Below, one piece after another: positions 1-10,538 of a stretch of 10,538 nucleotides of DNA. The DNA lies in the NCBI GenBank assembly GCA_038867615.1, contig JAWBYA010000018.1, positions 465-11,002 on the forward strand, in the 5' to 3' direction. Position numbers and translations under genes: made by a program. How positions within the stretch are numbered: the stretch's first letter is position 1; each line of letters begins with the position of its first letter. The notes beneath the pieces are model-generated. The model made no database searches, was not told the DNA's origin, and was given only the letters and a program-made list of their open reading frames with translations. This DNA is from Sulfolobales archaeon (GTDB lineage: Archaea; Thermoproteota; Thermoprotei_A; Sulfolobales; AG1).

Positions 1-37
1 AGTAATCAGAAGTGTTTAAAAGTATTTAAATTTATCG

Positions 38-1264
38 CTAAACCTGCAACAGCCTGTTAAGCATGTCTATCTTCTCTTTATCTGGTATATAATCACCGAT
101 CTTCTTCATAAGGGTCTCCATAGCTTGCGGTATTATGAATTCGCTCTCAACAATCTTACCAATGATCATGCTAGCTAAGTTTGGTCTCCTCCTAACTACC
201 TCCTCTATCAAATCAACCTGTTTCCCATCTCTCCCCCTTATCTTCATGAACGAGAATATCAGCAGCTCATCCGCTGGGTTCCAATCCCTGTCCGCTTTGC
301 TGTGGAGGATGGTCAGCAGTATTAGCTCTCCAGCATCTACTGGGTCATAGCCATACTCAGCTAGCTCGTCCAATATCTTCCTGTAGTATCTATATTTGAT
401 GTGGAGCCAAACATATCTAGCGTAGATCCTCATCCAATAATCCCTGCTAATGAAAACGCCAATTTTACCGAAGTCGAGGGGCTCTATCTTCTTGCCCTTA
501 ACGTATAGACCGTCTCTCCTAAGCCTTATCTCTCCCTTCTCTATTAGGTGTTTCAAAAGACTTGTACCATACTTAGACGGATCTGGCATGTCGAAGATAG
601 CATCATAGTGAGCTATGGTGTGATATACACCGTAGCTTCCGAGCTTTGCCATGTAGTCCTCGAATATGGCTCTATCCTTATCGCTGATCTGATCGTAGAG
701 CTTATCTATATATTCAGCTTTCTTCACTAGCGGGCTGTTTCTATCCAATGCAATATCATTGATCATGAGGATTCTGAGAACCTCTATGCCAAGAACCCAC
801 TTCAACCGCTCATCCTTGTTGCTACTAGCCCTTCTAAGATCCTGAATCATCTCTCTAAACTCGGAGCCAAGCTTATATCCAAGATTGAAGGGATCATCAT
901 CAGAAGTGGCTTTAGCAATTTTACTACAGAAATCCTCAACACATATATATCTATACTTGCTGGCAACTAGAACCTCATACGATGATTCAATCTTAGTTGC
1001 TAGCTTCAGATCTATGAATATCTCGATCTCATAATCATCTTCAAAGTCATATACCCGCATATGGACTGATAAGGTGTTGTCCACAGCACCATGTATCGGC
1101 TCTGCAATGTTATATTCATAGTAATAGAGGTCGGGGGATAAAATGGGTATATCATCGCTACTTATCCTAGTATATTTCTTTCCAAGTCCGCTTTCGAAGC
1201 CACGTAGAAAGGTCATGAGATATCTATGTAGCTTTGTGTTAATGGGACTGGCTTCTCCGCTCAA
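38..1264 (-). CDS. Hypothetical soluble protein (408 aa), mostly helical, possible internal winged-helix-like segment
   Basis: Long ORF with host-like codon usage. The TTG start has GGAGG 5 nt upstream (alternative ATG at 1216). No TM segments or catalytic motifs recognised. LLKHLIEKGEIRLRRDGLYV resembles a wHTH helix plus wing (weak). Confidence 0.8.
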   Translation of the reverse strand: MSGEASPINTKLHRYLMTFLRGFESGLGKKYTRISSDDIPILSPDLYYYEYNIAEPIHGAVDNTLSVHMRVYDFEDDYEIEIFIDLKLATKIESSYEVLVASKYRYICVEDFCSKIAKATSDDDPFNLGYKLGSEFREMIQDLRRASSNKDERLKWVLGIEVLRILMINDIALDRNSPLVKKAEYIDKLYDQISDKDRAIFEDYMAKLGSYGVYHTIAHYDAIFDMPDPSKYGTSLLKHLIEKGEIRLRRDGLYVKGKKIEPLDFGKIGVFISRDYWMRIYARYVWLHIKYRYYRKILDELAEYGYDPVDAGELILLTILHSKADRDWNPADELLIFSFMKIRGRDGKQVDLIEEVVRRRPNLASMIIGKIVESEFIIPQAMETLMKKIGDYIPDKEKIDMLNRLLQV

Positions 1265-1285
1265 CCTAGCCTCCGAAATATTCTA

Positions 1286-1303
1286 CTGAAAAAAACAGTT
1301 TTT
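1286..1303 (-). terminator. Putative oligo-T terminator / short palindrome between the large ORF and the 408-aa ORF
   Basis: The minus strand reads AAAAACTGTTTTTTTCAG just after the stop at 1312, giving a T7 tract. AAAAAC-A-GTTTTT (1291-1303) is palindromic. Confidence 0.35.
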
Positions 1304-1311
1304 ATTGAAAC

Positions 1312-4077
1312 CTAGCTCTTTCTAGCTTCTAGCTGTCTATCTACATACATTGATACCTTGCCCTGTGGTGTGAATCCTAGGCTTGACCTTATCAATGCTG
1401 ATGATATTGCGAACGCCCTCTCTGGGGGTATTATCTTGAGACCAGCGGATGCTATCGCTGTCCCCACACCTGCTAGGGGTATCAGATGCTCCACAAATGT
1501 TAAAACTGCTGCCGCCATGTGCATCCCGAGCACCCCGCCAGTTATGCCTATTGCTGGTGCTACGAGGAGGACTGTGTTTTTGAATGCCTCCCCGACATCG
1601 CCCCATGTTCTGTGAGCCTGTGTAAGCCTTCTAGCCATTATAGCCTCGTTCCTGATAACCTCAAGAAGCTCAGTCCTACCCATAACCGCTACGAGGTGAT
1701 TGAGGTTCATAGCGTAGTATGCATTGCTATATATCCTGCTAACAACCTCCTCATTGCTCAGAGCCTTTGCAATCGCCATGTCAAATGGTATCTTCTCCAT
1801 CTCCCTTATCCTCTGAGCCTCCTGGATGATAGCTGTTGCAGCATCCATATTTACTGGAGGGCTATCAACACCCTGTGGAAGCGGGGGCGCCCCGTGGAAT
1901 ACAGAGGCGTTCTTCCTGCTGACCTCATGCATCACATACCTCTCAATATTCACACCAGATAGCCATACCCCAAGTATTGCTGCGTTCGACTTGACCGATT
2001 CGCTGGTCTCTATATACCTCCTAACCCTTATAATCTTCTCCTCAGGCATATCCTGGATCGAGGGGTTCTGCCCAAACACAACAACCTTCAAACCCTCAGC
2101 AGATGAGAGCTCCCCCGCCTTGGATGGATCTGAGTATCTTATGGATTGGTTGGTGGGCATAGCGACTATAACATATACCTTGTCCTTTGTCTCCCTAACA
2201 GAGTAGCCATTGACAAGGCTCTCACCAACAACACTACTCCTAGCATATACCCTCCACTCATTCCCAGCCCTGCTAATACCAACAACCCTGAGCCAGTCAT
2301 CAGCAATGCTCGTAGCCCCTCCACCCCTAGCATCATTGATGTACTTAGAGAGCCCTGTGATGCTAACATTACCGCTACCCCTGTCAATCTCTATAACAAC
2401 ACCCCTTATAGAGACCCACATGTTATCCCTATCCTTAGACACCTCCATAGGGTCTTTAAACCTGTATGAGGATGACACATCGCTTAGAAGGTGGATACCC
2501 TCATAGCCGATCTCATCCGCAAGGCTACTCTCAATAGTCTGTGATAGCTGCTGCGGCTGGTGCCCCAAACCAGATAGTATATCCCCAACCTTGTCAGACA
2601 CCCTGTTGATATAGTCATTGATATCGCTATCAACACCATTCACGGTATAGCCCTGATTAACCCTGTATAGGAGGGCTGGTATCTCCACAGGGACTTTCTT
2701 GCCTTTCTGATCAACCTCCACCTTTACATATCTCACGCTATCCACAGCACCATCGTTATACCTAGCAATGATAGATGCAAGGACTCCAAGGGATGAAACC
2801 CTGACAGCCCTCTCAATAGCTGTTCCAGGGGTTGTTATGTTAAGACTATTCGGATCCTGATTATGGGATATAGCTCCTCTTCTAAGGCTATATACGTGGC
2901 TAAACACATCAGCAGTTTGCTTAGCATCTCCAGGGAGGTAGCTGAATCTCTGGAGGTTTATGAGCTCCTCCAATGTGTTGAGGAACCTGCTAGCCTTATC
3001 CCTATTCTCCTCTCTCATGGTATCCACAGCACCTAGTATGAGATCCTCCTCCATGTTTCGGATCTTCGATAGGATATCATTGGTATTAACCCCACTATGC
3101 TTAGAATCATAGTACATCACCCTATAACCCTCAAGACGATCCAGAAGACCACCCATAGCAGAATACCCAGATGCATAGTCCCTGACAACACCCATGTCCA
3201 TGAGTATATATGCCTTTTGTATCAGATTCTGGGTTGATATGCCGCTATCAACCTTTAGGTGGGAGGCTATATCGCCTATAGATAGATCCTCAACTGCGTC
3301 TCTGGGATTGTGGATGGGTTCATAGACATATGGGTTATACTTCTTGGGAAGACCAGATGCCATCCCATCGAGGGCATATACATCGCTTAGCTTCAGCTTA
3401 GTAGAGAGATCCTTCCATTTATCAGCATATATATTAACACCATTATTAACATGGTTTCCAATGTTATTCAGAAGCTTATAGATCTTGTCAGGGTTGGGGC
3501 TAGAAGCCCTAAGCTCATTACCAATTTCATAAATGGCGTTCTGTATCTCTGCTAGGTGGAACCCGAGTTCTCTGTATTCCTGCTCCTTGGTATAGCCTAT
3601 GCTTGCATTGAATGGAGAGCTATCGCTAAAGAACCTAGCGTTAAGATCGTCCTTCACACTACTGTATAGATTTTGCATCTGTGTCTTTAGATTGTTTAGC
3701 TGGTTGGCTAGGTTATTTATTGCTGTGGTGTTGTTGGGGTTGAACACAGCTTCAAATCCCAGCTCTGTTAGTATGCTGTGGTAATTATCTAACGCTTGTT
3801 TCAGGTTATTTTTCAGGTTATTTACTTTTTTCTTGAATTCCTCTAGGTTGTATATCACCTCTGCTGCGAATCTCGTGTCTTCTGTTACTACTAGGGTTGC
3901 TGGTGATGATGCGTATAGACCCATGTGGGCTAGGTTTGCTGATGATCTGTTTGCAGCCCTCTCAAGATCACCAATATCTACCGTGAATATCCTTGCAAGC
4001 TCTCTATATGCCTCACGCCTGCTAAGCTCCTCGGTAAGGGATTCATGCTCCTTCCTAGCCATGAATAGCCGGGACAT
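1312..4077 (-). CDS. Large hypothetical protein (~921 aa): N-terminal Asn-rich coiled coil, central beta-rich region, C-terminal Gly/Ala-rich hydrophobic helical hairpin
   Basis: The ORF track gives 1312..4191. ATG 4077 (MSRLFMARK) is preferred because it has GAGGAG upstream and avoids overlap with the divergent ATPase. Heptad-like segment EEFKKKVNNLKNNLKQALDNY...NNLANQLNNLKTQMQNLY. Hydrophobic stretch VLLVAPAIGITGGVLGMHMAAAVLTFVEHLIPLAGVGTAIASAGLKII at ~1428-1572. No N-terminal signal peptide. Confidence 0.85.
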   Translation of the reverse strand: MSRLFMARKEHESLTEELSRREAYRELARIFTVDIGDLERAANRSSANLAHMGLYASSPATLVVTEDTRFAAEVIYNLEEFKKKVNNLKNNLKQALDNYHSILTELGFEAVFNPNNTTAINNLANQLNNLKTQMQNLYSSVKDDLNARFFSDSSPFNASIGYTKEQEYRELGFHLAEIQNAIYEIGNELRASSPNPDKIYKLLNNIGNHVNNGVNIYADKWKDLSTKLKLSDVYALDGMASGLPKKYNPYVYEPIHNPRDAVEDLSIGDIASHLKVDSGISTQNLIQKAYILMDMGVVRDYASGYSAMGGLLDRLEGYRVMYYDSKHSGVNTNDILSKIRNMEEDLILGAVDTMREENRDKASRFLNTLEELINLQRFSYLPGDAKQTADVFSHVYSLRRGAISHNQDPNSLNITTPGTAIERAVRVSSLGVLASIIARYNDGAVDSVRYVKVEVDQKGKKVPVEIPALLYRVNQGYTVNGVDSDINDYINRVSDKVGDILSGLGHQPQQLSQTIESSLADEIGYEGIHLLSDVSSSYRFKDPMEVSKDRDNMWVSIRGVVIEIDRGSGNVSITGLSKYINDARGGGATSIADDWLRVVGISRAGNEWRVYARSSVVGESLVNGYSVRETKDKVYVIVAMPTNQSIRYSDPSKAGELSSAEGLKVVVFGQNPSIQDMPEEKIIRVRRYIETSESVKSNAAILGVWLSGVNIERYVMHEVSRKNASVFHGAPPLPQGVDSPPVNMDAATAIIQEAQRIREMEKIPFDMAIAKALSNEEVVSRIYSNAYYAMNLNHLVAVMGRTELLEVIRNEAIMARRLTQAHRTWGDVGEAFKNTVLLVAPAIGITGGVLGMHMAAAVLTFVEHLIPLAGVGTAIASAGLKIIPPERAFAISSALIRSSLGFTPQGKVSMYVDRQLEARKS

Positions 4078-4105
4078 ACCATCTCCTCTCAAATAGCTTG
4101 GATGT

Positions 4106-4121
4106 AAAAGCAAATGCTTTT
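4106..4121. promoter_or_regulatory. Inverted repeat in the divergent intergenic region (candidate operator)
   Basis: AAAAGCA-AA-TGCTTTT has perfect 7-bp arms and lies between the divergent starts at 4077 (-) and 4150 (+). Confidence 0.4.
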
Positions 4122-4149
4122 TGATAGATGGGATGTTCTTGGGATTGTC

Positions 4150-5568
4150 ATGTCTTGGTTCTACTCGAATATTGGTAGGAAGAGGCTTCACAGCCCATAC
4201 TATGTCAAGGATCTTGCTGTCAGAAGCCCTAGGGTTATGAGCATTCCAGAGCCTGACACAGGCTTGTTGATACCAACAGCAGGTGGTATTGCTCCAGAGG
4301 ATACTAGTAGGTATAACATATACATAGGGACTACGAAGATCAAGAAGGCTCCATACTACTACAACCCATTCGCACCCGTGAACCCGATGTTCGCCATACT
4401 CGGGGCGCCTGGATATGGGAAGAGTGAGTTTCTCCAGAACTTCATATTCAGGCTAAAACTCAAAAACCCCATAGACCCAGTAGTCATAATAATAGATCCT
4501 CAGGGGGAGTATAAGAGGGTCTTGAGCGCCCTAGCATCTAGGGGTATATATGGTGTTGAGCTTAGGGTTGGTGTGGACACGTTTATAAACATATTCGATA
4601 GACCTGAGGGTGTTAGCTACCAGAGGTGGGTGGCAGACGCAGTAGTACCCTCGATCCTAGAGGCACTCAAGATAACCTCGGAGAGGGGTCCGAGGATGGA
4701 GTCTGTTTTTCAGAGGATTATTATGCAGGTTTATGAGAGGAAGGGCTTTGTCCCAGCAGATCCATCTACTTGGAGGGACGATCCAACACTCCTAGATGTT
4801 ATGGAGCAGGTTCTGAGCGAGATAGAGAGGCTCACAACCAATAGGGAGAAGGGGACAGGGGATCTCATCAGAAGCCTAGCATCTATAAGGGATAGGCTTG
4901 GCAAATATGTATATGGCATTGGAACTGACTACTTCGCAAGAGCATCAACAATAAACATAGCCAGCCTGCTGAAAACACCTGTAGTTGTTGTTAATGTTAA
5001 GTATCTGGGGAGTGATGAGCCTAGAAACCTAGTGATACTATATATATTCAATGTCCTCTACCAGCTCATGTATAGAATGCTCCCCGTGAGAAACACCATA
5101 AGACTTGTATTCATAGTTGATGAGGGGTGGATCCTCCTGAAGAAAACCTCAAAGGGAGAATCCCCGCTTGAGAAGCTCGTTAGACAGGCAAGGAAATTCG
5201 GCTTCATGGTCGGTGTTGCCACGCAGAAGTTTGAGGATCTCAGCGAATCTATATTAAGCCTAGTGGGAACTCTATTCATATTCAACCCAAACGACCCAAA
5301 GGTTGTTGAGTATGCCAAGAAAGCAGGCGTCCCCGAGAAGACCGCCAAGCAGATACTAAACCTTGAGAGGGGCTGGTGCTTGGTAAGAACACAATGGGTG
5401 TCTAAGGAGGGGATGGAGAACCCCAACACATCGTTCTTCGTAAAGATAGACAGCACAGTAGATAGACCAGCAAACATACAAACACCAAAAACAATAACAC
5501 CACAGGAATTCATAAGAATAGCAGAATCAATAGCAATAACAAAAGAATACGCATCAAGAATAAAATAA
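4150..5568 (+). CDS. VirB4/HerA/FtsK-superfamily P-loop ATPase (VirB4 C-terminal-domain-like, no TM segments)
   Basis: Walker A GAPGYGKS (4402-4425), IIIDPQGEY motif, helical insertion, Walker B FIVDEGW (~5110-5130), arginine-finger region RQARKFG and the ATQ motif. The start is ATG 4114 or 4150. ATG 4150 has GGGA upstream and leaves room for divergent promoters. Confidence 0.9.
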   Translation: MSWFYSNIGRKRLHSPYYVKDLAVRSPRVMSIPEPDTGLLIPTAGGIAPEDTSRYNIYIGTTKIKKAPYYYNPFAPVNPMFAILGAPGYGKSEFLQNFIFRLKLKNPIDPVVIIIDPQGEYKRVLSALASRGIYGVELRVGVDTFINIFDRPEGVSYQRWVADAVVPSILEALKITSERGPRMESVFQRIIMQVYERKGFVPADPSTWRDDPTLLDVMEQVLSEIERLTTNREKGTGDLIRSLASIRDRLGKYVYGIGTDYFARASTINIASLLKTPVVVVNVKYLGSDEPRNLVILYIFNVLYQLMYRMLPVRNTIRLVFIVDEGWILLKKTSKGESPLEKLVRQARKFGFMVGVATQKFEDLSESILSLVGTLFIFNPNDPKVVEYAKKAGVPEKTAKQILNLERGWCLVRTQWVSKEGMENPNTSFFVKIDSTVDRPANIQTPKTITPQEFIRIAESIAITKEYASRIK

Positions 5569-5574
5569 ACATAC

Positions 5575-7143
5575 TTATGCTCTAATTAACGTCCAGCCAT
5601 CAAAATACTCAGCTATTTCTACATTTACTGTATACAGAAAAGCACTGCATACCTTATCCCTTAATATCTTGGCTAGAACATAAGTATCAGGTGTAGTAGC
5701 TACTCCTCCATCTGTGAATATAAGTATTAGATCACTTTTTTCTGCTATTTTGATAGCATATGCTAGAGCAGGATCTATAACTGTACCTCCACCACCTATT
5801 ATTTGCATGTGTAATATCTCTCCTAGTTTCAGCTTTCTATTTATATCTATGACATTTGTAACTTCCCTATCCCATTCTATTATTTTGATTTCATTTATTC
5901 CTAGCATGTAGGCTAGTGCTAGGGTATATTCAATGCCAAATTTGGGTAGTGAGGAATGGAATGTAGATCCGCTTACATCTATCAAGGAGATTATCCTGCC
6001 TAGCCTGTAGGTAACTTCTTTACATATTTTTAACGTCTTTTCAGTCTCTATCATGGCGGTAGCTAGGCTGGTTCTTATTGATTTGATTCTACCTGGTAGG
6101 TCGTATCCGAGTTTTCTGTGGGGCATCACCCAAGATCTCCTAATCACCTCTGCCCTACTCGGTAGCTTTATTATCTTCACATCTTTCTCAGTTTTTGTTT
6201 CACACTCTATGCTAACGCACAAACCTGACTTGAACCTATCCACGATACTATTTAGGAAGGGTGATATTGTAGATGCATCTGCATTTACAATTACAATAAC
6301 TCTATATGCTGAAAGACCTCCTCCACTACCTATGCCAACAGTTGTAATAATAGGTGTAGTAGTATTAATAAGATTGTTAGTGTCTTCAGCTCCATAAAGT
6401 CCATAGATTTCATATGTCTTAATTGGTGTTTTTCTAGGTGTAAGTACTTGTATTGGTTGTTTTTCCCATGTTTGTTTTAGTATTGTTAGTATTTCTAGTA
6501 GGGTTGTATATGTTTCGTATGTTCCGTTTTCCTGTAGTGATGTTCTGAGTTTTGAGTATAGCTTTGTTAGCCTCTCTATCTGTTTCTTCTCTTCTGGTTT
6601 GTTCTCTGCTCTGGATGCTATTTCTTTGATTGTGTCTCTTATCCATTTATCTAGTTCTTCTATTTCTTTCTCTGTGTTCAGGGTTTTCCATCTTCTTAGT
6701 GGGCATTGGTCTGATGGGTTATACTGGGGTATCGGGTATCCCTTTTTCCTGAGTTCTCTGTGTATCACGTAGTTTGCTACTAGGTTGTATAGCTTTGCTG
6801 AGTCTGCTTGGCTTATTGTTGGGGAGAGCTTTGTGATCAGCTCTCTAGCCCTTTCCACTAGGTTCTCCCTTGTGTTCTGCTTGATCGCTGTTGCCACATA
6901 TGCTAGTATGTATTTCATGTCCTCCTCTACATGTTCTTTCTCCCCGCTTCTGAGATGCTCTGCTAGGGATTTGCTGATATATAGCTTAAACCCTCCCCCT
7001 ATGCTCGATATCTCTAGGGGGTTGTCATCTGATAGGTCTCTTACCTCGATATCTATCTGGGATAGCTCTGGGCTGAAGAGCTCTAGACCTGTGCCCTTTT
7101 CTATGCCCCTGCCCAGGAGTTTTCTGAGTATGTCTCTAATCAT
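5575..7143 (-). CDS. vWA-domain protein, DUF2201-like (N-terminal degenerate metallopeptidase-like domain plus C-terminal vWA)
   Basis: MIDAS motif DVSGS (5965-5979), GGGGT and LILIFTDG. N-terminal YILAYVATAI...LYNLVANYVIHREL matches the spacing of the HExxH...NxAxD region of DUF2201_N. Overlaps the AAA gene stop by 8 nt (ATGATTAG). Confidence 0.85.
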   Translation of the reverse strand: MIRDILRKLLGRGIEKGTGLELFSPELSQIDIEVRDLSDDNPLEISSIGGGFKLYISKSLAEHLRSGEKEHVEEDMKYILAYVATAIKQNTRENLVERARELITKLSPTISQADSAKLYNLVANYVIHRELRKKGYPIPQYNPSDQCPLRRWKTLNTEKEIEELDKWIRDTIKEIASRAENKPEEKKQIERLTKLYSKLRTSLQENGTYETYTTLLEILTILKQTWEKQPIQVLTPRKTPIKTYEIYGLYGAEDTNNLINTTTPIITTVGIGSGGGLSAYRVIVIVNADASTISPFLNSIVDRFKSGLCVSIECETKTEKDVKIIKLPSRAEVIRRSWVMPHRKLGYDLPGRIKSIRTSLATAMIETEKTLKICKEVTYRLGRIISLIDVSGSTFHSSLPKFGIEYTLALAYMLGINEIKIIEWDREVTNVIDINRKLKLGEILHMQIIGGGGTVIDPALAYAIKIAEKSDLILIFTDGGVATTPDTYVLAKILRDKVCSAFLYTVNVEIAEYFDGWTLIRA

Positions 7144-8518
7144 CTGTCTTTATCCCTGCGATCTCTAGGATCTCCTTCTCCTTCTTCTCTATCTCCTGCA
7201 GTCTCTTCACCCTCTTCGTGATCTCTTTCCTCAGTTTCTTCTTCATCTTCTCGATCTTTCCGAATGTTTTTTCAGCGGTTACTAGGGCTGTTATTAGAAG
7301 GCTATCCCCGTCTGGGTATGATGCCAGCTTGTTCAGGATATCTATGTATTCCTCTGGAACCTCGTTTCTCTCATTGAATGCAGCACCTATCCTCTCCCCC
7401 ACCTTTCTTGCTAGGCTGTATCTCTCTAGGCTGTCTAGCTCATCTATCTTGGATTTGTCCCTCAGAGCCTCTTCGATCTTCTTGTTTGTGCTCTCAAGTA
7501 TATATGATGCCAGCTCACCAGCCACGTTCAGCCCTACGAAGCCTGCTAGATGTGCCTTCAGAGCGTCTATATCGTATGACAGCTCTCTCAGCTTCTCTAT
7601 CGGTGTTGCTAGCAGCAGCTTCTCCCACGACCTCGGGGTTGGGTAGTTCTCGTCTATCTCCTGGTTTCTGCTTGTTGGGAGGGCTAGCAGGTATTTGGAT
7701 CCTGTTCTCCTGTGGAAGCCTATGAGGAGCTCTAGGGTCGCCATATAGCTCTCCCTCAGATCATCATCGGCTATCGAGGATATCCTCCTCTTAACAACCC
7801 TTACCCACGAGTCGAGGTCTCCAGCCGTTACATAGAATATCTTAACCCTGTTCACAACAGGCTCTGGTATAACATCTGCCAGCGATGAGTGGGATGGTGC
7901 GTTCCCAGCACAGACAACAAAGCTCCTCGGATGCATCCTCACAAAGCCCGCTGACTTCTCGTTAAGTATCTTCTGGGTTGCAGCCTTCACATCGTGATCC
8001 TGGACATTTGTGAACTCATCCAGGAATAGAACCCCTGGGGCTAGTGAGAGGGCGTATGCCCATGATATCGGCTTATACTCAACATACCTCCCAGCATCCC
8101 TTGGGATACCGCTTACATCGTGTGGCTCCACCTCTGTAAGCCTTATATCCTGGAATAGGAAGTACCTCTCAGAGGCGCTTGGATCCCTCTCAAGCTCCTC
8201 AACAACCCTAGCCCTAGCCCTGTGATCAGTAATATCAACAAACACCCTTCCAAGCCTCTCAGCAGCCTCCCTAGAAGCCTCATACACAACCTGCGTCTTA
8301 CCAATACCTGGCGGCCCTATCAATATATAGTTTGGATATGTCCTGGCAATATCCTCTGGGAGTCTCTGGAGATATAGAATAGCCTCTATAATCTCGTTCT
8401 TAACATAGTCAGGACTAACAACAGGAACATTAGGAGGGAAACCAGTATCCCCGCCAAAGATAGCCCTTCTAATAAACTTGGGTAGCTTTGTAGATATAGA
8501 TATATCTCCACACCCCAT
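7136..8518 (-). CDS. MoxR-like AAA+ ATPase (AAA_5-type, partner of DUF2201 vWA proteins)
   Basis: Walker A GPPGIGKT, DIRLTEVEPHDVSGIP insert, Walker B LFLDEF, sensor I CAGN, Arg finger NR, sensor II PTPRSWE and a charged C-terminal helix. Translationally coupled to the vWA gene. Confidence 0.9.
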   Translation of the reverse strand: MGCGDISISTKLPKFIRRAIFGGDTGFPPNVPVVSPDYVKNEIIEAILYLQRLPEDIARTYPNYILIGPPGIGKTQVVYEASREAAERLGRVFVDITDHRARARVVEELERDPSASERYFLFQDIRLTEVEPHDVSGIPRDAGRYVEYKPISWAYALSLAPGVLFLDEFTNVQDHDVKAATQKILNEKSAGFVRMHPRSFVVCAGNAPSHSSLADVIPEPVVNRVKIFYVTAGDLDSWVRVVKRRISSIADDDLRESYMATLELLIGFHRRTGSKYLLALPTSRNQEIDENYPTPRSWEKLLLATPIEKLRELSYDIDALKAHLAGFVGLNVAGELASYILESTNKKIEEALRDKSKIDELDSLERYSLARKVGERIGAAFNERNEVPEEYIDILNKLASYPDGDSLLITALVTAEKTFGKIEKMKKKLRKEITKRVKRLQEIEKKEKEILEIAGIKTDD

Positions 8519-8534
8519 AATATATATATCAAAT

Positions 8535-8551
8535 CTTAAAAAGCTTATATA
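8535..8551 (-). promoter_or_regulatory. Putative archaeal TATA box for the AAA/vWA operon (probably leaderless)
   Basis: The minus strand reads CTATATAAGCTTTTTAAG 17-33 nt upstream of ATG 8518 in an AT-rich 172-bp intergenic region. There is no SD motif before the ATG. Confidence 0.4.
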
Positions 8552-8610
8552 GATCTTATCTCACGCAAAATATACATATACACTTTATATCATGTGGAAA
8601 GCTAGCAATA

Positions 8611-8635
8611 AATGTTCTATAAGGCTAAGAACATT
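8611..8635. repeat. Perfect 8-bp inverted repeat (candidate operator or terminator)
   Basis: AATGTTCT-N9-AGAACATT. Confidence 0.55.
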
Positions 8636-8690
8636 ACATAGTATATCGGGCTGTTTTGAAAAACATATATACAGATTATAGATCATCTTT

Positions 8691-9002
8691 CTATGCTGGT
8701 TGTGGATGTCTCCTCCTTATCTCTATTATCTTCTCAGTTGTTATCATCTTCGACAGCTCTCTATCCATCTCCTCCCCAAGCTGTTTCTTCCTATCATCGC
8801 CGCTTCTCCTTAAATACGATATTAGTCTTACGAGGGCTGATAGCTCGTCTATTGATAGCCTGGCTATATCGCCCTCCCTCTTCAGCTTCTTCCAAGCATA
8901 TACACCCTCCTCGTAGGTTATAGGGATCCTAACCATATCAATGGGATCTACAGCTTCTTCTTCCTCATTCTTTTCCTCCCATTCCTCATCATATTCGCTC
9001 AA
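8691..9002 (-). CDS. Small hypothetical protein (103 aa) with acidic N-terminus and helical C-terminal domain
   Basis: TTG start preceded by GGGGA. The N-terminus is SEYDEEWEEKNEEEE. It is co-oriented with and 42 bp downstream of the pilin-like gene. Confidence 0.7.
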   Translation of the reverse strand: MSEYDEEWEEKNEEEEAVDPIDMVRIPITYEEGVYAWKKLKREGDIARLSIDELSALVRLISYLRRSGDDRKKQLGEEMDRELSKMITTEKIIEIRRRHPQPA

Positions 9003-9044
9003 TAGATATCCCCAATATATACCATCTAAAAGGGAGGGTTGTTT

Positions 9045-9470
9045 TTATGCAACCACTTTTGATCCGTCTCTGAGGATGTAGATTGGATATACCCTGACCA
9101 CTGATCCGCTACATATCTGGTTCCCAATGTCTATTCTGAATGTGAGCTCTCTCGTCTTGCCAGCCTCTATAGGTATTGATACCCAGATCCTTGAGGTTAT
9201 TATGTTGTTATTCTGACACGCTACGACAGCCGTTACGCTCTGGAGTGTTGCATCCACGCTCCCCCCTATCACAACCATAGAGACTATTATTGTTCTCTGG
9301 TCTCCCAGTATGTTTAGGGAGGTTATCGAGGATCTCGGGTGGGATACCCCTCCAGATGCTGCGTATATAGTGTTGAGGGCTATTGGATAGGCTATGAGGA
9401 ACGATACTATGGCTACGCTTAGAACCATTATGGCTGCTACTATCTCGCTTATAGCCCTCCTCGTATTCAT
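9045..9470 (-). CDS. Archaeal type IV pilin-like protein with class III signal peptide
   Basis: MNTRRA/ISEIVAAIMVLSVAIVSFLIAYPIAL: short basic leader, [RK][GA] cleavage site for PibD/FlaK-type peptidase, then a hydrophobic helix. The C-terminal domain is beta-rich with two Cys. ATG 9470 overlaps the upstream TGA (ATGA) and has GGTGGAG upstream. Confidence 0.85.
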   Translation of the reverse strand: MNTRRAISEIVAAIMVLSVAIVSFLIAYPIALNTIYAASGGVSHPRSSITSLNILGDQRTIIVSMVVIGGSVDATLQSVTAVVACQNNNIITSRIWVSIPIEAGKTRELTFRIDIGNQICSGSVVRVYPIYILRDGSKVVA

Positions 9471-10240
9471 ACTTCGCTCCACCTCAGAGCCCTGTCTCCG
9501 AGCATAGCCTCCACGAGGTTCCTAAGATCTATACCAGTTATCTTCTTAGATGTGCATCCTATCTGCTGGGCTATGTTCTCTATCTGCTGAGCCTGCACCT
9601 TCACCCTCGTGATAGCCTCTTGAGCTGTTCTCCCCTTAGCCTGTATCATTATGAATGAGACAGCGGCTACAGCCTGGCTCTTCATAAGCCTAGACCTCTC
9701 CCTCTCAATCTCCATCCTCTTGAAGCTCTGGAGAGCGCTGAATATAGACTGTCTCCCCATAGATGCTTGTGCCTGCAGCTTTCTCATCTCATGCTCAAGC
9801 CTCTTAACCTCAGCAGGTATTATCGTGTCTTGTGTCTTGTGTATGCAGTATAGGGTTCCTACTGGGAGGCTGAACACAGCACCCTCGACACTCTGGATCA
9901 TGGCTTTCATCTCACTATCATCCATATCGGTTACAGGTTGTAGGGGCAGAAGTTTGAATGCCATCGCAGCGGAGCATATATCCTCAGCCTTTGTTGTGTC
10001 TCTATTGCATATCACTAGCACATCCCTATCTATCCAAGCATCCCCCAGATAGATCTTGAATAGTCTTGGAAGTATTATGTGCCCGTAGAGGGAGAAAACA
10101 CCAGCTAAGGCGTATAGCGCTAGGATTGCGAATACCCATGTCATGGTTATGGGGGAGATACCTATCTGCAGGATCACCAGGGAGACTAGGATCGTCATGA
10201 ATATGAAGAACATCTGAGACCATCTAGATATCGAGGGCAT
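9467..10240 (-). CDS. Membrane protein (2 N-terminal TM helices) with a soluble domain resembling the VirB4 N-terminal / conjugation accessory region
   Basis: ATG 10240 (MPSISR) has GGTGG upstream, while the ORF track starts at 10276. TM1 is MFFIFMTILVSLVILQIGI and TM2 is WVFAILALYALAGVFSLYGHIIL. A coiled coil EVKRLEHEMRKLQ follows. The C-terminal SFIMIQAKGRTAQEAITRVKVQAQQIENIAQQIGCTSKKITGIDLRNLVEAML matches by eye the strand-helix-strand-helix that precedes VirB4 ATPase domains. Confidence 0.75.
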   Translation of the reverse strand: MPSISRWSQMFFIFMTILVSLVILQIGISPITMTWVFAILALYALAGVFSLYGHIILPRLFKIYLGDAWIDRDVLVICNRDTTKAEDICSAAMAFKLLPLQPVTDMDDSEMKAMIQSVEGAVFSLPVGTLYCIHKTQDTIIPAEVKRLEHEMRKLQAQASMGRQSIFSALQSFKRMEIERERSRLMKSQAVAAVSFIMIQAKGRTAQEAITRVKVQAQQIENIAQQIGCTSKKITGIDLRNLVEAMLGDRALRWSEV

Positions 10241-10300: not shown

Positions 10301-10495
10301 TTAGGGGGTTCGGGTTTCATTGGGCTTGATATTGTTTGATTTCAAGCCCTCTTCCCTTGGCTTCATCGCCCTCAGGATCCCATCGCCCTCAGGATCCCAT
10401 TTCATCGGGATCCATATCGCTGGGCTCCGCCCGCTTTGGGCGACCCCTACCCACAGCTTCACCCTCATTGTTTCCTCAGGTTCATTGCTGTAGGG
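10301..10495 (-). ncRNA. Candidate structured RNA or cis-element (cluster of GC-rich hairpins)
   Basis: Stems at 10322-10329/10342-10349, 10359-10361/10368-10370, 10392-10398/10407-10413, 10428-10432/10438-10442 and 10450-10457/10487-10494, plus a possible closing helix 10302-10312/10441-10449. Confidence 0.35.
10364..10400. repeat. 17-bp perfect tandem duplication
   Basis: CATCGCCCTCAGGATCC occurs at 10364-10380 and 10381-10397, followed by CAT. Confidence 0.95.
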
Positions 10496-10536
10496 AATTC
10501 CGCATCCTGGTTTTCCTCTTCCCTCTCCTCTTGCCT
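10465..10536 (-). CDS. Possible C-terminus of an upstream gene truncated by the window edge
   Basis: Open frame ...RQEEREEENQDAEFPTAMNLRKQ* with protein-like composition, co-oriented with the downstream operon. Only 24 codons are visible. Confidence 0.3.
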   Translation of the reverse strand, partial: RQEEREEENQDAEFPTAMNLRKQ

Positions 10537-10538
10537 CA

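Follow-up and report, generated by a model that had tools for sequence, protein, structure and literature searches.

Little is understood of how the plasmids and integrated elements of archaea pass from cell to cell, and the locus described here raises the question of whether one such element might do so with a small machine that depends on the pili of its host. The window (the whole 10,538-nucleotide stretch that was analysed, G000:C18:465-11002) covers nearly all of the 11,002-base contig C18 in the 2.22-Mb, 28-contig genome of a Sulfolobales archaeon. We call this genome G000, the genomes of relatives G001 and G036, the related loci L followed by a number, and the window genes gA to gH. These eight genes are long uninterrupted open reading frames (ORFs), and no housekeeping gene is present among the listed ORFs and their translations. 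An earlier note on this DNA had listed a soluble ATPase, a protein with two transmembrane helices next to a class III pilin, an AAA+/vWA pair and two large orphans, with no housekeeping genes, and the intact ORFs and their family matches agree with that list. We find that the window holds a fragment of a mobile genetic element, either plasmid-like or integrative, that is mosaic, rare and restricted to one genus. It may represent a new way for archaeal DNA elements to pass between cells, a function that we put forward as a proposal made from sequence.

A rare and mosaic mobile element

The distribution of the locus is narrow. At E<=1e-20, the ATPase gC was found in 3 of 41 genomes of relatives, namely G000, G001 and G036, where the last match is weak and corresponds to a CedB-like protein of about 30% identity. 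It was found in 1 of the 5 other genomes of the genus. Of 351 genomes of the class, only G000 and G001 gave a match to the profile of the membrane protein gH. The same genes occur in the same order in five metagenome loci (L010 to L014, 72-97% protein identity), except that L014 keeps gB-gC-gD-gE (83-95% identity) and carries another class-III-signal gene at the position of gF-gG-gH. The small gene gF is conserved only in L013. In this locus the genes next after gH are ones that the type-2 element has about 7 kb away from its ATPase. The type-2 element has a second type of ATPase (66-69% identical), which we found in G000:C20, G001:C27 and L015 to L017, each time with different neighbours than in the window; in G001:C27 and G000:C20 it is followed by ParA-like, 887-amino-acid (aa) and KaiC-like genes. 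In L017 the type-2 ATPase locus abuts genes for a glyoxalase, a hydrolase, cytochrome bd and phosphoglucomutase (PGM). Because these host genes are chromosomal in G000, the relative in L017 appears to be integrated. The locus is therefore placed on a mobile element by its sporadic, multi-copy and mosaic occurrence and by this integrated relative, in agreement with the integrated element, plasmid or virus that the earlier note had supposed.

The small contigs of G000 (C11 to C27) form a gene-sharing network of related elements. A survey of 116 ORFs on small contigs gave genes for TFIIB (2), KaiC-like (2) and ParA/CbiA (2) proteins, helicases, resolvase, Cas proteins and others; TFIIB genes are located on C12, C13 and C19, and C27 has a weak one. 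None of the 10 large ORFs tested on C11 and C12 has a Pfam family. No Phage_integrase match was found on the small element contigs, the matches in G000 being only on C3 and C10.

In G001 the ATPase is on contig C27 and the homologues of gB, gH and gG (gB', gH' and gG') are on C74, in the order gB' (1029 aa), a 1061-aa ORF, an 89-aa ORF, gH' and gG'. There, gB' matches gB at E 7e-28 and lies about 4 kb from gH'-gG'. The gH-gG pair is found on both G000:C19 and G001:C74, the gH copy being 57% and the gG homologue 39% identical to those of the window. Hence, the two genomes with any of these genes (the gC family, gB-like genes, gH and gG) both have all four. Since G000 and G001 are kin and may share one element lineage, this amounts to one or two independent observations. 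A homologue of the ATPase (P0002) and one of gH (P0011) are reported with the same longest contig, of 108,858 bases. Beyond this co-occurrence and the order kept in L010 to L014 (in L014 minus gF-gG-gH), the block is broken, and the idea of the earlier note that the eight genes form one conserved machine does not hold: L014 swaps gF-gG-gH, G001 showed neither type of AAA+/vWA pair with the queries used, and the diverged element has its ATPase on another contig.

In nature this family of elements is abundant, although its proteins have hardly any relatives. Of the public runs listed, 14 contain half or more of the sampled words of the window; all or part of the stretch is present in runs from 15 studies, and nearly all carry the label hot springs metagenome. 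A search by words in 5.8 billion proteins gave 3 close and 2 distant relatives of gC, and 3 relatives of gH. Among 1.84 billion cluster representatives, the gB family has 4 matches at E<=0.001, one of which is gB itself at 87% identity. A tblastn search of PLSDB with gC returned only distant bacterial VirB4/TraC/DUF87 matches (22-34% identity), and the ATPase alignment found no relative in a collection of genome contigs from which records near the window's own genome may be absent. One metatranscriptomic run contains contigs that align to the window with 90-99% identity at positions 636-3299, 3590-3885, 4175-5573, parts of 6887-8096, and 8679-10240, and that therefore represent relatives of gA/gB, gC, gE and gF-gG-gH. 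This is weakly suggestive of expression of these relatives, as the library may hold DNA, and it does not prove an operon structure. The gap over gD may reflect only the divergence of this gene, which is the most divergent one among close relatives (72% identity).

The ATPase and its neighbours

The gene gC (4150..5568, plus strand) encodes a 472-aa soluble CedB/VirB4-like ATPase of the FtsK-HerA superfamily. Its start is most likely at 4150, and its homologues begin with MSWFY. It matches the Pfam families AAA_10 (8.5e-12) and DUF87 (2.4e-9), both above their cut-offs, and has the P-loop of the superfamily, with the Walker A motif GAPGYGKS and the Walker B motif FIVDEG read from the sequence. 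We looked for a hydrophobic segment or membrane anchor in gC and found none. Three lines of evidence bear on its place in the superfamily. The VirB4-type models of NCBIfam span the whole ATPase domain, whereas the HerA models cover only about 80 residues. An AF2 model made from 11 sequences has a mean predicted local distance difference test (pLDDT) of 56.4, with values of 65-85 across much of the core, and the top four Foldseek matches of this model in PDB are to the C-terminal domain of Thermoanaerobacter VirB4 (4AG5/4AG6, E 1.7e-11 to 8.7e-11, TM scores 0.60-0.63). DndH-C, HerA, TdpAB, TrwK and Sir2-HerA come next, with DndH-C and HerA within 2-3 orders of magnitude. Finally, in a tree with the CedB-like, CedD-like, TrbE-like and TraG-like proteins of G000 (labelled by NCBIfam) and the ATPase of the Ced locus in G036, the gC family groups with the CedB-like protein of that locus with support 81/83, on long branches and with weak deeper support (67/77). 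These results favour a place for gC on the VirB4/CedB side of the superfamily, not on the CedD/HerA side, and give more precision to the VirB4/HerA-type label that it had received. The nearest relatives found are the CedB-like proteins of G036, at about 25-30% identity, and the identity to the host CedB-like protein is 24%. The Ced-like locus of G036, a genome from another family of the order, lies at G036:C59:70227-78452 (L048) and encodes a 660-aa CedB-like ATPase, an Lhr-type helicase, a 469-aa CedA-like protein and a second ATPase of 448 aa.

A divergent intergenic region of about 72 nucleotides (4078..4149, with both starts inferred from homologues) separates gC from the large orphan gB (1312..4077, minus strand, 921 aa). 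The ORF of gB is open to 4191, and its start is most likely at ORF residue 39, i.e. window position 4077, as indicated by an ESM Atlas record and the homologue P0006. Homologues of 985-1248 aa align with gB over the full length. Most of the protein is helical and resembles a coiled coil, and its C-terminal region (ORF residues 873-921) is hydrophobic, rich in Gly/Ala and conserved. It had been called a large membrane-inserting protein, and what remains of this is the C-terminal stretch, which is weakly hydrophobic (Kyte-Doolittle 1.6-1.75) and falls under the threshold in the 1029-aa homologue. The ESM Atlas search with gB gave a best score of 0.76 and no usable lead. The second orphan, gA (38..1264, minus strand, 408 aa), lies 3' of gB in the same orientation. 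Its sole relative is a longer form of 649 aa in the metagenome locus L012 (54.5% identity). The C-terminus of gA may be truncated here, because its 3' end abuts a 55-bp assembly-graph overlap (window 1-55). Neither these two proteins nor gF and gH have a family in Pfam, PHROGs, NCBIfam or PADLOC; gF (8691..9002, minus strand) encodes a small acidic protein of 103 aa.

The gene gG (9045..9470, minus strand, 141 aa from its ATG) encodes a protein like a type IV pilin with a class III signal peptide. The N-terminus reads MNTRRA followed by ISEIVAAIMVLSVAIVSFLIAY, with RRA and ISEIVAAIMVLSVAIV around the cleavage point, which fits the class III pattern: a basic N-terminus, a [KR][GA] cleavage motif and a hydrophobic helix of about 20 residues. 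The cleavage is predicted from the sequence. No pilin or archaellin model of Pfam or NCBIfam matched gG at E<=0.1. The same pattern is present in the gG homologue of C19/C74 and in 20 ORFs of element loci. The gene gH (9467..10240, minus strand, 257 aa) encodes a hairpin of two N-terminal hydrophobic helices, as judged from hydrophobicity, and a soluble domain of about 190 aa. Its stop codon TGA overlaps the ATG of gG as ATGA, and the two genes are predicted to be translationally coupled.

Wherever the flank is long enough, the neighbourhood of the ATPase includes a class-III-signal gene. This gene is gG in the window and in L013, a member of a 164-aa family in L014 and G001:C27, and a protein of 973-988 aa directly upstream of the ATPase in L016 and L017. 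By a crude pattern, 14 of 223 ORFs on contigs C11 to C28 have a class III signal, against 32 of 1994 on C1 to C10. The 973-988-aa family has RRG followed by ISSVASALIIMAIVL and no Pfam family, is found at L017:5561-8527 (minus strand) and G000:C11:9371-12292 (plus strand), and may consist of giant pilin-like or adhesin-like proteins. Runs of small class-III-signal ORFs occur at G000:C16:3602-6532 (L029) and on C14 and C15, with no PilB/TadC gene nearby; the ORFs of these three contigs gave one weak match to an archaellin model (6.5e-4). Half of the large-contig ORFs with the pattern (16 of 32) are on G000:C2, where they may mark a pilin-rich island or an integrated element.

The genes gE (7136..8518, minus strand, 460 aa) and gD (5575..7143, minus strand, 522 aa) overlap by 8 nucleotides and encode an AAA+ ATPase, MoxR-like or like gp24 of phage N4, and a protein with a vWA-like C-terminal domain. 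An AT-rich spacer with TATA-like runs (8519..8690, read from the sequence) lies 5' of gE and is probably a separate promoter for gE-gD. The match of gE to Pfam AAA is above the cut-off (3.2e-7, 31.3 bits against 21.2), and that to AAA_5 is exactly at it (1.8e-4, 22.0 bits against 22), so that the MoxR label given to it is loose. One source calls a 94%-identical homologue 'MoxR-like ATPase'. The protein has the Walker A motif GPPGIGKT and the Walker B motif LFLDEF, read from the sequence, and matches no PDB sequence at E<=0.01. In gD, the vWA models are below their cut-offs (DUF2201 9.4e-4, 19.7 bits against 26.4; VWA_2 0.016), and the motif DVSGS of a metal-ion-dependent adhesion site (MIDAS) can be read from the sequence. 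Residues 381-486 of gD match N4 gp25-like proteins of Pseudomonas phages by tblastn, the N-terminal part of 375 residues has no match, and the only matches to PDB sequences have E>0.1. The pair resembles MoxR AAA+/vWA pairs and the gp24/gp25 pair of phage N4 in its adjacent overlapping genes, with the vWA gene directly beside the ATPase gene, and in its strong PHROG matches (phrog_1297 for gE, 1.6e-35; phrog_1314 for gD, 9.3e-15). It differs from MoxR/vWA pairs in the borderline AAA_5 score of gE and the low vWA scores of gD. A second, unrelated-looking pair, a 608-aa vWA protein and a 391-aa AAA_5/MoxR-type protein, lies at G000:C23:69-2925 (L024). With the queries used, G001 has neither this pair nor a relative of gE at E<=1e-6. 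The pair gE/gD is an exchangeable accessory of the element.

Possible roles of the locus

We tentatively favour, at somewhat less than even confidence, the reading that the core of the window is a mobile element's module for DNA transfer or contact, non-canonical in kind, which makes use of the host's pilus machinery. The candidate functional core comprises gC, gB, gH and gG. In such a module, gC would act as a soluble hexameric ATPase that supplies energy, and would be recruited to the membrane by gH, with its two transmembrane helices, and possibly by gB through its hydrophobic C-terminus. The host prepilin peptidase would cleave gG, which would then be displayed or polymerised by the host type IV pilus machinery and bring about contact between cells, and the module would move the DNA of the element, or a protein, across the envelope. 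The pair gE/gD would most likely serve as a MoxR-style assembly chaperone with a vWA adaptor. We infer the physical interactions, the substrate and the direction of transport. If the motor, the protein with two transmembrane helices, the large orphan and the class III pilins do cooperate, they would make a minimal transfer machine dependent on host pili, and the enrichment of class III signals on the elements would be explained.

The host has the machinery that such a module would borrow from, and also transfer systems of its own. Within the genome G000, T2SSE matches are found only on C5, C3 and C2 and T2SSF matches only on C5, so that contigs C11 to C28 have no T2SSE or T2SSF match that could provide PilB/FlaI and TadC/FlaJ partners for gG. 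The sole T4SS-DNA_transf match is on C10, a 41-kb contig with an apparent canonical crenarchaeal conjugative module at G000:C10:7648-19877 (L054), made of a 944-aa VirD4/TraG-like and a 618-aa VirB4/TrbE-like protein. The same contig encodes a DprA-like protein and a MAD2/PglX-like methyltransferase, and has two integrase matches. While C10 has this pair of ATPases, the window has a single short one, and gC has no tblastn link at E<=1e-3 to the conjugation proteins of C10. A Ced-like set of CedA-like, CedA1-like, CedB-like and CedD-like genes is located on C3. None of the host TraG/TrbE, Ced and pilus systems is on the small element contigs, and none is close to the window proteins. The earlier note had named, as what could explain the genes separately, flanks with a canonical PilB/TadC locus or a standard conjugation module. 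We found neither on C18, the flanks of which are not assembled, and such systems are present elsewhere in the genome, on C5 and C10.

The combination of a VirB4-type ATPase with class III pilins had been judged to fit neither the archaeal type IV pilus systems nor the VirB4-driven Sulfolobus conjugative plasmids and Ced. It is not unprecedented, because integrative and conjugative elements (ICEs) of Thaumarchaeota/Nitrososphaeria (Krupovic et al. 2019, PMC6563490) are reported to carry a VirB4-type ATPase, class III pilin genes and an element-encoded TFIIB, features shared by the element studied here, with its TFIIB genes on the related contigs. They are also reported to carry VirD4/TraG, VirB6, VirB3, TadC, FlaI/PilT and a prepilin peptidase, none of which was found on the window contig or the related small contigs. 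Moreover, the partners gB, gH and gA are orphans here, and the host phylum and habitat differ. According to PMC9905601, the Sulfolobales Ced system and the Thermoproteales Ted system are chromosomal and vertically conserved, and comprise a VirB4-like ATPase, together with a channel like VirB6 and a pilin like VirB2. Like our locus, they have one VirB4/CedB-like motor, lack a coupling ATPase and a relaxase, and include small membrane partners with two transmembrane helices. Unlike them, the locus is mosaic, is rare in the class (as given above for gH), has no recognisable CedA/TedA-like channel or VirB2-like pilin, and has a pilin-like protein, gG, of class III type. No window protein matched CedA, CedA1, CedA2 or CedE at E<=0.1, a result compatible with a remote homologue, as these families are described as very divergent in PMC9905601. 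Crenarchaeal conjugative plasmids (pNOB8 type, with TraG and TrbE) are like the element in that a VirB4-superfamily ATPase is set amid lineage-specific membrane and ORFan proteins. According to PMC9905601, neither a relaxase nor a pilus protein can be recognised among the products of any archaeal conjugative plasmid.

One could go further and see in the locus a third kind of archaeal DNA-transfer apparatus, in which a stripped-down CedB/VirB4-like motor works with the new membrane partners gH and gB, and class III pilins of the element, assembled by the host pilus machinery, replace the VirB2-type pilins and the VirB6 channel. In this case the element would hijack host pili for a mating bridge. 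We regard this stronger version as quite unlikely.

Several observations weigh against a transfer or contact module in general. The score of gC is far below every curated VirB4/CedB cut-off of NCBIfam: CedB (1.9e-17, 63.1 bits against 700), CD1110 VirB4-like (7e-17, 60.9 against 325), TraC (43.8 against 567) and VirB4_CagE (32.4 against 643). The protein has no N-terminal VirB4 domain, the models aligning from about residue 68 to the C-terminal halves of profiles of 750-800 positions, and its top single hidden Markov model is a defence HerA-like one, mad8 of PADLOC (6.7e-22, 76.4 bits, residues 78-412). Neither gB nor gH has detectable similarity to any secretion component, and the AF2 model of gH, made from a four-row alignment, is of low confidence (mean pLDDT 48; helices at 6-26 and 30-65). 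In Pfam and NCBIfam searches the contig showed neither a VirD4/TraG-type coupling ATPase nor a recognisable polytopic channel of VirB6/CedA/TedA type, and no match was obtained for a VirB2/CedA1-type pilin, a relaxase or an integrase. Relatives do not keep the block together, given the swap in L014, the lack of AAA+/vWA pairs in G001 with the queries used and the ATPase on a separate contig there. Finally, the ends and the replicon state of the element are not assembled, as 55-bp graph overlaps tangle the assembly.

Three other explanations have to be weighed against this proposal. The locus could be a morphogenesis module of a virus or provirus, with gC as a packaging motor of FtsK/HerA type, gB as a large structural or tape-measure-like virion protein, the class III proteins as a virion surface or fibre, and the AAA+/vWA pair as a virion-remodelling chaperone. 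The Acidianus two-tailed virus (ATV) reportedly encodes a MoxR-type ATPase and a vWA protein, for which such a chaperone role has been proposed. The best matches of gE and gD are indeed virus-borne (the N4 gp24/gp25-like PHROGs given above), gC matches phrog_7035 (8.5e-21) and a PHROG labelled terminase large subunit (2.9e-9), and gB has weak, sub-threshold matches to tape-measure or phage-tail families (phrog_1272, 0.0052; NF047706, 2.3e-4). Many large ORFan proteins, like those tested on C11 and C12, are typical of crenarchaeal viruses. Archaeal dark-matter islands have HerA-like ATPases among their most frequent genes, and in PMC4158269 the stand-alone ones are annotated as possible viral DNA-pumping ATPases. 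However, no capsid or other viral hallmark was recognised, gC and gB had no tblastn match among 50,697 phage and archaeal-virus records, and four pattern scans of IMG/VR (with gC, gE, and the alignments of gC and gH) gave no relative. Known packaging ATPases of the PRD1/STIV type are much smaller than gC, and the ParA-like, KaiC-like and TFIIB genes fit a plasmid or ICE at least equally well. We consider a viral module rather unlikely; if it were true, the window genes would be markers of a group of viruses, as yet undescribed, in a genus of hot-spring archaea.

That the ATPase with gB, the AAA+/vWA pair and the pilin cassette are independent, juxtaposed by chance in a recombining pool and with no joint function, we judge unlikely. 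Swapping is seen directly in L014, which combines gB-gC-gD-gE with another pilin-like gene, the ATPases of G001:C27 and G000:C20 have wholly other genes after them, as described above, and the transcription units of the window are separate and partly convergent, as shown by gene orientations. Chance would nevertheless have to account for gC, gB-like, gH and gG genes being together in both genomes with any of them while gH is in 0 of the 349 other genomes of the class, and for a coupled gH-gG pair kept together down to the identities reported above for C19/C74. We deem it improbable that the locus is a defence or conflict island on a mobile element, in which the HerA-like gC would work with an unrecognised effector, gE/gD would be a MoxR-vWA conflict module, and the genes for pilin-like and membrane proteins would be cargo without any relation to these. 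In PADLOC, next after mad8 for gC come several HerA and DndH models of defence systems, and Foldseek places DndH-C, TdpAB and Sir2-HerA just under VirB4. An ATPase-nuclease module, MAD7-MAD8, is reported in PMC13662399, MoxR-vWA conflict systems are a described class (PMC7159879), and the AAA+/vWA pair is exchangeable between elements. Yet no nuclease, Sir2, methyltransferase or other known effector lies beside gC in any architecture examined. PADLOC has no match for gA, gB, gD, gF, gG and gH and three weak ones for gE (best MkoA, 2.2e-5), and the tree and NCBIfam alignments favour the VirB4/CedB side over CedD/HerA.

Contig ends and a chromosomal repeat

The first 55 bases of the window are identical to C18:272-326 and C20:12-66, and contigs from public runs break at window positions 51-55 and 4489-4520. 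Because of these 55-bp identities and of the public-run contigs that break at the same places, we take the contig ends to be assembly-graph junctions. The adjacency across the N gap in the C18 scaffold may be doubtful, as the overlaps look like assembly-graph overlaps. Our search for attachment sites and element ends failed, the contig stopping in the 55-bp overlaps and in a chromosomal repeat. No tRNA was detected in the window or in 19 related loci, and no Rfam family matched the window at the gathering threshold. At an E-value threshold, L013 and L037 gave two sub-threshold matches to small RNAs, both in L013, on which we do not rely.

The other end of the window, at the edge of the element fragment and of the contig, has a diverged copy of a hairpin-rich repeat family of about 215 nucleotides (10304..10520, by blastn). 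An ORF at 10301-10537 was rejected as a gene, as the stretch 10301-10538 is a copy of this chromosomal repeat. The repeat starts with GGGGTTCGGGCTTCAT and ends with CCCCACATCCTGG. It gave 23 blastn rows including the window copy, at 68-84% identity, all on C1 to C7, C18 and C22, and the window copy is the most diverged of the family. The repeat is absent from the related element loci and has no Rfam family at the gathering threshold. RNAalifold gave about -63 kcal/mol on 14 copies, and in one metatranscriptome the summed contig depth over the repeat was about 1,700-3,500, compared with about 25 on neighbouring genes. The repeat may be an expressed structured RNA or a miniature inverted-repeat transposable element (MITE).

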